A program made the position numbers. Source: a virus (lineage: Duplodnaviria; Heunggongvirae; Uroviricota; Caudoviricetes). Taken from it: a stretch of DNA of 29,723 nucleotides. Shown here piece by piece: positions 6,001 to 9,000 of this stretch; position 1 is the first letter of the stretch; each line of letters opens with the position of its first letter. The DNA lies in the IMG/VR virus record IMGVR_UViG_2675903266_000003. One strand, 5' to 3'.

Positions 6001-9000
6001 CACTCTGGTCTTCCAGTTTCTTATTGACGGTCTGCGTGATTTCATTGCTGACATCCGTAATGGACGTCCTGATTTCAGCCAGGTCAGGCGCAAGCTGACC
6101 GTTATCAATCTGCGTCCACAGCTCCTGAGCCAGATGGGTTTTCCCTATCTCGCCTTTGAAAAAATCCAGATAACCGGATGCATCATCACTCGGCTGACCA
6201 ACAGCCTCCACGAATGCCGATTTGCCAACGGTGTTCACACTGCGGATATAAAAGTAATAATCATGGCCCGGTTTGATATTGATACTGGCGGCTATCCAGT
6301 ACAGCGAGTCTTTCTGGCTGGCGGTTCAGGGTATTTGAGGTAGCGTCTGACCGTCCGTTCAGAGCAACCAATCTGAGTCGCAATATCGACGATGTACGCG
6401 CCCTGCTGGCGCATTTGCTTTATCATGTAAAAGTCCTCTCTGCTCAGCATGTTGATGTCCTTTCTGGTGTGAGAACCTTAAGGAAACAACATGTTGGGTG
6501 GAGCGGACAATCCAAATGGCGAATTACCGTCTTATATCACTGGCGCTGACACTTCATCACCTCCGGACGTAAATCACCATCCTTTGGTGCATTCAGAAAC
6601 GCGTTCAGTGTCCCCGGTGCATCAGTCGGTGCCACATCAATATCCCCGACACGGGTTGGCTGCCAGCCGTTACAGTGAAGCGCAACCTCGTAATACCCCG
6701 GCTCAGCCTCAATCACATAAGCACCGTTATTGTCCGTCACGCAAGTGGCAACAACGTGTGCCACAACGGTCGGACTGGTTCTTCTGGCCCGCAGTTCAAT
6801 CGCACAATTTACGACAGGTTTACCCGCCCCATCTTTCAGTACACCTGAAATCTTTACTGCCATATTCACCCCACAAAAAGCCCGCCTGAACCAGCGGGCA
6901 GTCATAACACTGTGTTACCTGGCTAATCAGAACTTATAACCGACACCCACGATGAAACCGTCAGTGCGCCAGTCACCACTGCCGGAACCTTCATAAGCAA
7001 GGTCAATGGCCACGGATTCGGTCGGGTTAAACTGCACGCCAGCCCCCCACGCCAGAGACGTGTTGCTGTGGCGACCGCCATCACTTCCGGTCAGCACATC
7101 GTGCGTTTTCCCCTTGTTGTCAGTTACGCGGAGATAATCCCCGGAGAAGGTCGACACACGGCTGTAAGCCACGCCCGCCATCGCATACGCGCTGAACCAT
7201 TCATTCACGCGCACAGACGGCCCCGCCATCACGCTGAACCAGCGGTTACGCACGGAATCCTCATGCCAGCGGGTATCGCTGTAATGCGTTTTTTGCTCAT
7301 CTTCAGCGTTGGCATAACTGAATGACGTAATCAGCCCCAGCGTGTCCGTAAACTCATAACGGTATTTCACGTTAATGCCCTTCAGGTCATCGCTGCCTGG
7401 CATATCAGTATGGGTCTGAAGATACCCGGCGCTCAGCGTGGACTGATGTTCAGACGCCCATGCAGGCGCACCGGATACGGCCAGACAGATGGCTGCGGAC
7501 AAAATGGCTGCACAAACTTTACGCATAATTACCTCTCGCTTTTCTGCAATAAAAAAGGCACCATTTCTGGTGCCCGTATCTGGGTTATAAAATTCAGCTA
7601 ATCGTGATGCCTGCAGTGGCTTTCTTCATCACCACAACCAGCAAATCGCTGATACTTGCTGTGGGATACCAGCCATTTACCAGCCATGCCGATACAGAAA
7701 ACTCCAGCGTCATGTGACCGTGACCGGCAGGCATATCAATAACACCCGTATATATCAGCGTATTATCCAGGGTCGTTCGGTTATAAATTTCAGCACCGTT
7801 TTTCTTCACTATCAGGCGGCATGACGAATAAATATTGTTATTCTTCCGCTCATGTTTAGCACCGCGAAACGCCACCGCGGGAATAACAATTTGCCGATCA
7901 AACGGCTGATCGTCATAAACCCTGACGGTAATGGTCCCTGATGGCCACCTCTCCGGTGCCCGGGAGTCCCGTGGGAAAGGTTTGCCCACTGTTTTAACGA
8001 GATCGCCTTCAATCTGGTTCGCGGACAATTTTCCCAGAACCCGACAGTTCTTATTAATCGTGACGTTGTTGAGCGTCCCGGAGTTCGCGTTCACGTTACC
8101 GCTGATATCGGCATTTTTCGCCGTCAGCCGTCCGCCAGGTGTCAGGGAAAATGCCGGAGGATTACCGCCGCTGGTAATGGTCGGAGCCGTCAGGCATTTC
8201 AGGAACACGTCGTTCATGAATATCTGATCGCCCTGACCAACAAACATCGGCTTTGTGTTGCCATTCGCAGGATTAATCATCGCAATCCTGTCTGCCGCCA
8301 GCAGCACCTGACTCTGCATTCCTGCTGGCGTATTCTCAATACCGGCACCGATACCCGCAATATAAAGGCGTCCGTCCTTCATCTGTTGCAGCTTCACAGC
8401 CCACATGCTGTTCAGGTTATTATTTGTATCAACCTGAACTTTCTGTATCTGCTGGATTGCAGCACTCTGATTTTCCAGTTTTTTATTGACGGTTTGCGTG
8501 ATTTCATTGCTGACATTCGTAATGGACGTCCTGATTTCAGTCAGGTCCGGCGCAAGCTGACCGTTATCAATCTGCGTCCACAACTCCTTGCCGAGATGCG
8601 TTTTATTGATCAACCCTTTATAAAAATTCAGATAACCTTCTGCATCATCGCTCGCCCGACCGATGGCCTCCACAAATGCCGATTTGCCAACGGTGTTCAC
8701 ACTGCGAACGTAAAAATAATAATCATGGCCCGGCCTGATATTGATACTGGCGGCTATCCAGTACAGCGCCGTGCCAAGATAGCGGGCGCTGGTTTCAACC
8801 TGCCTGATATCCGCAATCCGCTTTTCCGAAAACCAGAACTCAAACTGCACCGTCGGGTCATATACAGCCAGTTTCGGGACCGCCGTTATCTGAAAATACC
8901 CCGGTATCAGTTCAATAGTGACAGGCGCTGCCGGTGCCGCAATCCGGAACGATACCGACGCCGGATCGCCCTGCTGCCCCCGGGCATTTACCGCCCGGAC

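Follow-up and report, generated by a model that had tools for sequence, protein, structure and literature searches.

Swapping a segment of the phage lambda protein gpJ changes its receptor from LamB to OmpC, natural variants that replace lambda J after residue 964 make the same switch, and two gpJ variants, 1A2 and A8, rely on OmpC rather than LamB (Brodel et al. 2024, PMC11338833). Modular J ends are already well documented. Programmed tail variation is exemplified by the Mu G segment and the diversity-generating retroelement of Bordetella phage. A further body of experience concerns the assembly of short reads, where SSPACE places a single N when an overlap is expected but none is found. SSPACE and GapFiller are used together with Velvet in the Sanger high-throughput pipeline, the source of 299 public Shigella sonnei assemblies, and its authors warn that both programs work greedily and can make false joins; by default GapFiller closes a gap on a minimum overlap of 10 nt (PMC3446322).

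Two J C-termini in one stretch of DNA

The window, by which we mean the whole 29,723-nt stretch analyzed, covers lambdoid prophage late genes read from the minus strand: Nu1 (27882-28427) comes first, then the head and tail genes, with stf and tfa (798-4468) last. Genes upstream of J look normal, and the J region is abnormal. A 1240-aa open reading frame (ORF; 9390..13112) contains an internal repeat and ends abruptly at a stop 6 codons past a breakpoint, followed in minus-strand order by a 602-aa J piece, lom, a fragment of stf, the start of an IS21-family transposase gene, a 374-aa J piece, a second and shorter lom, a full stf, and tfa. The minus strand carries both J 3' ends, one in the 602-aa ORF (7594..9402) and the other in the 374-aa ORF (5114..6238), and we refer to their terminal modules as receptor-binding domains X and Y, respectively.

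A sequence-only reading of this DNA had proposed that the two J pieces are near-identical upstream and end in distinct C-termini of ~170 aa. Our comparison bears out the divergence, although the module is somewhat shorter than claimed: from the Cys of a conserved xNC motif to the stop side, domain X (150 aa) and domain Y (156 aa) share 39.0% identity, whereas the 71 aa directly before this module are 88.7% identical. BLASTP of the last ~370 aa of each end gave 68% overall identity, with the divergence mostly C-terminal. As that reading also noted, neither end is attached to an intact J as assembled, since the 1240-aa ORF ends early and the two C-terminal pieces stand isolated.

To place the two ends among known proteins, we searched PDB sequences with phmmer, finding that both match residues 911–1131 of lambda J (8iyk_J) over their full length (E = 1e-70 to 7e-70 for domain X and 2e-62 for domain Y) and that both also match the entry named "A8 gpJ" (PDB 9wca). 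Homology to the C-terminal ~220 aa of lambda J (Pfam Phage_Tail_Tip and Ig_GpJ_C class) is therefore common to both. Among phage records, domain X is 92–95% identical to the VT1-Sakai and PPompW prophages and others, and domain Y is 97–99% identical to phages cdtI, mEp460, and 2851 and to many Stx2 phages, with less than 60% identity to the remainder. The database search proposed in the sequence-only reading thus separates the C-termini into different identity classes, both of lambda-type gpJ, and these comparisons support the view that X and Y represent distinct classes of receptor-binding domain.

Single-N joins and overlapping tiles

The window is the whole of draft contig CXBD01000046.1 (GCA_001255615.1, Shigella sonnei; 29,723 nt), on which the 602-aa and 374-aa ORFs both have exact protein matches. 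Comparing record and window base by base over 19,402 nt, we found just three differences, at 11535, 9410, and 6307, each of which is an N in the record and an ordinary base in the window, where a reading of the sequence alone could not have recognized it. We divided the J region into five pieces (a to e) by self-comparison and by typing alleles against the J genes of two prophage loci in closed genomes, J_Y and J_X (Table 1), and the three Ns proved to be the a/b, c/d, and d/e joins, leaving one breakpoint of the four without an N. The N-marked joins are scaffold joins across which no sequence was read; in the window they look like a 1-nt filler or a direct abutment. At the remaining breakpoint (11019-11028) the pieces overlap by 10 nt, the default closure threshold of GapFiller. 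J coordinates jump backwards at all four joins, and position 11535 coincides with an apparent 'GQ' codon loss and a switch from the Y to the X allele.

Table 1. Pieces, joins, and component features of the J region and contig ends, in window coordinates
Feature	Position	Strand	Description
IS2 end	29680..29723		terminal ~44 nt; multi-copy in E. coli genomes, annotated there as IS2
Piece a	11536..13112	minus	prophage Y J nt 1-1577, by allele typing; same piece extends upstream to window end 29723
a/b join	11535		N in public record, base in window; scaffold gap
Piece b	11029..11534	minus	~0.5 kb of J, nt ~1585-2090; largely X-type, with sites mosaic for Y and X
b/c join	11019..11028		10-nt overlap; J nt ~2100 to J nt 1320, a backward jump of 781 nt
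Piece c	9411..11028	minus	prophage Y J nt 1320-2937, with X-like patch 10104-10212
c/d join	9410		N in public record; window shows 1-nt filler breaking the J frame
Piece d	6308..9409	minus	remnant X; match to 11 closed-genome X loci
J_X 3' part in piece d	9409 to 7594	minus	J_X nt 1665 to end
Receptor-binding domain X, '1A2-like'	7594..8046	minus	150 aa plus stop; assigned by comparison with A8, lambda J, and 1A2
lom_X in piece d	7526 to 6927	minus	
stf_X in piece d	6863 to 6540	minus	N-terminal 108 codons; ORF stub spans 6537-6905
IS21-family stub in piece d	6551 to 6308	minus	first 244 nt; IstA/IstB Pfam hits in sister-draft locus L038
d/e join	6307		N in public record, between IS21 stub and J_Y nt 2306
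Piece e	1..6306	minus	prophage Y; 99.97% identical to and colinear with closed S. sonnei genomes
J_Y 3' part in piece e	6306 to 5114	minus	J_Y nt 2306 to end
Receptor-binding domain Y, cdtI/mEp460/2851/Stx2-phage class	5114..5584	minus	156 aa plus stop; assigned by identity to phage records
Short lom_Y in piece e	5043 to 4561	minus	160 aa
stf_Y in piece e	4462 to 1379	minus	
tfa in piece e	1379 to 798	minus	
IS1 end	48 to 1	minus	48 nt in piece e

The Ns also bear on how several searches are to be read. Exact strings across the 9410 and 6307 joins had no matches in IMG/VR, and the string across 9410 had none among GTDB species representatives, results that are uninformative given that the record has N at these joins. 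The 1240-aa chimeric ORF had no exact match in protein look-up, likely because of the N at 11535 in the deposited ORF. At its two extremities the contig ends inside repeats, with 48 nt of IS1 at the start and ~44 nt of IS2 at the far end, the usual signature of a short-read contig. The IS2 end had no match within the retrieved prophage loci and was placed by a search of E. coli genomes. The Nu1 protein is too widespread to show what adjoins the window end.

Pieces a, c, and e overlap exactly: the last 258 nt of piece a are the first 258 nt of piece c (11536-11793 and 10771-11028), and the last 632 nt of piece c are the first 632 nt of piece e (9411-10042 and 5675-6306). Merged on these overlaps, the three give one open J of 3498 nt and 1165 aa, the same length as the closed-genome J_Y, from which it differs by 27 nt and 6 aa, all six amino acid changes lying within the single X-like patch of piece c. 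The exact overlaps rebuild J, which makes a, c, and e tiles of one intact gene, and the reference structure returns once the two inserts are taken out. The inserts, pieces b and d, come from the paralogous locus; piece b is ~97.6% identical to the closed X loci without being an exact copy of either allele.

Neighboring CXB* accessions are S. sonnei drafts from the collection of Holt et al. 2012, and the present assembly was presumably made with Velvet, SSPACE, and GapFiller. Sister drafts from the CX accession series (loci L013-L016 and L036-L039) contain the same genes, differently scrambled, and their joins, similar in style to those of the window, are 10- or 16-nt overlaps and 1-nt gaps. 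The coordinate at which J_Y restarts varies among the drafts (2306, 2159, 2018, 2129, and 2335), which disfavors a real insertion site. We considered a genuine IS21 insertion in J_Y behind the 6307 join, where sister draft L038 has a full IS21, and rejected it on account of the differing restart coordinates and because piece c reads through the site unbroken.

The sister drafts also bear on the allele mosaics, namely piece b and the patch at 10104-10212. These might reflect real gene conversion between co-resident J genes, apart from any scaffolding artefact: the patch lies in an N-free piece, where 26 consecutive X-type informative sites are flanked by Y-type sequence, and the ~93% identity between J_X and J_Y is enough for homologous exchange. 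We regard this as unlikely, as the patch is present in 0 of 10 Y loci (6 closed genomes and 4 further draft contigs), each of which shows the same 20–21 mismatches, and similar mosaics occur elsewhere in the J of sister drafts. We infer that the mosaics were produced by the assembler merging near-identical paralogues.

Two prophage tail modules in closed genomes

Closed genomes hold the X and Y sequences at separate loci. Thousands of assemblies, among them closed S. sonnei 53G (HE616528.1), encode an stf protein identical to that of the window, and the closed Y locus reads H, M, L, K, I, J (1165 aa), lom (160 aa), stf (1027 aa), tfa, and IS1, matching window 1-6306 at 99.97% identity. The X locus (CP010829.1), reached through the truncated stf of piece d, is a defective prophage remnant whose J (1159 aa) is intact; it also has a lom of 199 aa and an stf interrupted by IS21. 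Window 6304-9409 matches this remnant at 3105 of 3106 nt in 11 closed-genome S. sonnei loci, the sole difference being an N position (the aligned stretch takes in position 6307, an N, and overlaps piece e by 3 nt). In closed genome CP104423.1, J_Y (1165 aa) lies at ~1.31 Mb and J_X (1159 aa) at ~1.99 Mb, both intact and ~0.68 Mb apart, and every closed locus we examined, 6 of Y and 11 of X, likewise has its J gene separate and intact. The closed-genome J proteins of 1165 and 1159 aa contain FNIII-A_GpJ, Phage-tail_3, Ig_J, Ig_J_second, Phage_Tail_Tip, and Ig_GpJ_C. In the closed genomes, domains X and Y each terminate an intact J of their own, full-length and in canonical domain order, whereas in the window as written neither does. 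In none of these finished S. sonnei genomes do X and Y adjoin, and neither the IS21/J join nor a colinear copy of the scrambled region was found in 5,426 complete E. coli genomes.

We put at about 95% the probability that the X/Y adjacency is a scaffolding artefact of a short-read S. sonnei draft in which two prophages were stitched together. The sequence-only reading had described one locus holding two alternative host-range modules, a claim we find unsupported, as the adjacency spans single-N scaffold joins and the loci lie ~0.68 Mb apart in closed genomes. It had also named a possible undoing, that both ends might be fragments of one misassembled gene; misassembly did emerge, but of fragments from two genes. 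On our account, an S. sonnei strain carrying two lambdoid tail modules, prophage Y and the defective remnant X, with J genes ~93% identical, would have had its J region broken into five pieces during assembly. Scaffolding and gap closing would then have slotted b and d, both derived from X, among the Y tiles a, c, and e, which belong to a single gene, leaving three joins as single-N gaps and merging the fourth on a chance 10-nt overlap. The product would be the 1240-aa chimeric 'J', the 602-aa fragment ending in X, and the 374-aa fragment ending in Y.

Could the order instead be real in the isolate? Illegitimate or microhomology-mediated recombination might have put a 3.1-kb X block into J_Y with partial tandem duplications, leaving a degraded J with two receptor-binding ends. 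Breakpoint homologies of 0–10 nt are what template switching would leave, Shigella genomes are IS-rich and rearranged (closed genome CP019689.1 truly holds two copies of the X remnant), and several drafts of the same project likewise put a piece of X immediately ahead of a Y 3' end, an adjacency that could in principle be real in a lineage without a closed genome. However, three of the four joins are Ns with nothing sequenced across them, an intact gene results when the Y tiles are merged on their exact overlaps, the point where Y restarts changes from draft to draft, and the closed genomes examined keep both loci intact and apart. We consider a recombinational origin of this kind very improbable, and the specific version in which the scaffold order is real and the J of prophage Y received a 3.1-kb copy from the defective X module slightly more improbable still. 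Were the order real, two differently specific ends would stand in tandem behind long direct repeats, and homologous recombination could resolve the locus to a Y-type or an OmpC-type J.

Two ends behind shared upstream sequence superficially recall programmed host-range variation as well, in which C-terminal cassettes are swapped by site-specific inversion, recombination, or mutagenic retrohoming, and it is this resemblance alone that favors such a system here. Both ends lie on the same strand as direct copies, and no inverted repeats of at least 25 nt are present in window 4400-13200. Genes that the window and the closed Y locus have in common, V to tfa, belong on record only to lambda-type late-gene families, with no invertase or reverse transcriptase among them. 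Within this region and these genes, neither inverted repeats accompanied by an invertase nor a template/variable repeat pair accompanied by a reverse transcriptase was found. Each putative cassette, moreover, has its own lom and stf, which makes these whole tail modules rather than cassettes. We give programmed variation a negligible probability.

With the scaffolding artefact as the preferred reading, the remaining biology is ordinary: an S. sonnei with two lambdoid tail modules carrying different gpJ classes, one of them resembling an experimentally OmpC-specific variant. The wider lesson is one of caution, as single-N scaffold joins that are later read as bases can yield convincing chimeric loci. 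On the record, the 1240-aa "J" and the 602-aa and 374-aa pieces are called as genes, and they can enter protein databases and catalogues of receptor-binding proteins.

Comparison with characterized J proteins and known false joins

The LamB-binding C-terminal domain of lambda gpJ (PDB 8IYK and 8XCJ) aligns with both window ends over residues 911–1131, and the window ends switch from conserved to variable sequence at the same place, near the residue-964 fusion point of gpJ chimeras. They differ from lambda in the last ~150 aa, where domain X is just 40% and domain Y just 36% identical to lambda J, so that LamB binding cannot be assumed for either. Over the same ~150 aa, domain X is 60% identical to A8 gpJ (PDB 9WCA) and domain Y just 42%. 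We compared domain X with 1A2 through ungapped segments, since the published 1A2 DNA has frameshifts from optical character recognition (OCR), and found 89 of 91 residues of the 1A2 C-terminus identical, counting only residues readable in the OCR-damaged sequence; 1A2 differs in one 11-residue loop of domain X, as read by hand from the damaged text. Domain Y does not match the 1A2-class C-terminal module. Because of the 89/91 match to 1A2 and the 60% identity to A8, OmpC is the likely receptor of domain X, as far as sequence resemblance can indicate. Literature searches found no receptor for the domain Y class.

As an assembly, the window shares with known false joins of the greedy SSPACE and GapFiller programs its single-N joins, 10-nt merge, identical overlaps of hundreds of bases, contig ends in IS elements, and varied scrambles in sister assemblies. 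Lambdoid prophages of E. coli and Shigella can also reside together while carrying unlike J alleles, and the tandem PPompW and Stx2a prophages (LC567841.1) provide a natural counterpart in which both classes occur together, an X-like end (92.7%) and a Y-like end (98.1%), each in a complete J. There, unlike in the single scrambled locus of the window, the two J genes lie ~48 kb apart in complete tandem prophages.

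Contig limits and allele patches in J

Both termini lie inside insertion sequences, so the window is an entire short-read contig with repeats at its two ends (table). Within the gene for the tail-tip protein J, pieces b and c of the scrambled region hold patches of the allele of the defective remnant X in sequence that is elsewhere of the Y allele. All 10 of the prophage Y loci examined lack these X-allele patches; six of those loci are from closed genomes and four from additional draft contigs. They could be paralogues merged by the assembler or the result of true gene conversion. 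The very long plus-strand ORFs opposite J owe some of their length to artificial duplication.

Features of the window and of two comparison loci
Feature	Sequence	Coordinates	Strand	Size or detail
IS1 end, contig start inside element	window	1-48		48 nt
Side tail fibre gene, prophage Y	window	1379-4468	minus	1027 aa
Low-complexity tract of side tail fibre, rich in Ala/Ser/Thr	window	about 3000-4100		~350 aa
lom, prophage Y	window	4561-5043	minus	160 aa
IS21-family element breaking stf of remnant X	window	6308-6551
IS21-family element breaking stf of remnant X	locus L012	10414-12778
Antisense ORF opposite J	window	8386-9501	plus	371 aa
Antisense ORF opposite J	window	9870-12323	plus	817 aa
X-allele patch in piece c, within J sequence elsewhere Y-allele	window	10104-10212		26 consecutive informative sites
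Y/X mosaic in piece b	window	11029-11534
IS2 end, contig finish inside element	window	29680-29723		~44 nt
Split tape-measure gene	locus L034 (CP026802.1, closed genome)	2664-5226		447 + 414 aa
Split J of prophage Y	locus L034 (CP026802.1)	7629-11125		721 + 374 aa

Other tail genes of prophage Y and remnant X

The lom product is 160 aa in prophage Y versus 199 aa in remnant X, and this shortening is genuine rather than an assembly error, since the identical 160-aa product is annotated in closed S. sonnei genomes. The side tail fibre of prophage Y has no Pfam family on record; over its low-complexity tract the AT-skew is strongly displaced (-0.31 to -0.37) and GC reaches 0.61. In closed genomes, the IS21-family element within stf of remnant X is itself divided by an IS3-family element. 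At the corresponding site of a sister draft (L038), istA and istB are unbroken; the sequence there is probably a consensus into which IS21 copies from elsewhere were collapsed.

J loci in closed genomes and a phage record

Remnant X is present twice in the closed genome of S. sonnei 75/02 (CP019689.1, loci L029 and L030, about 4.62-4.64 Mb), with ~9.4 kb between copies and the genes M-L-K-I-J-lom duplicated; the defective tail module appears to have undergone a true tandem duplication. For CP026802.1, where J spans 3497 nt rather than 3498, the evidence suggests that the splits in the tape-measure gene and in J of prophage Y come from single-base indels, either sequencing errors or true pseudogenes. 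Both receptor-binding classes are present in LC567841.1, a 90-kb phage record of tandem prophages (an Stx2a phage and PPompW). Each class sits there in a separate J gene, with ~48 kb between the genes, and this record is an authentic case of the two J receptor-binding classes co-residing.
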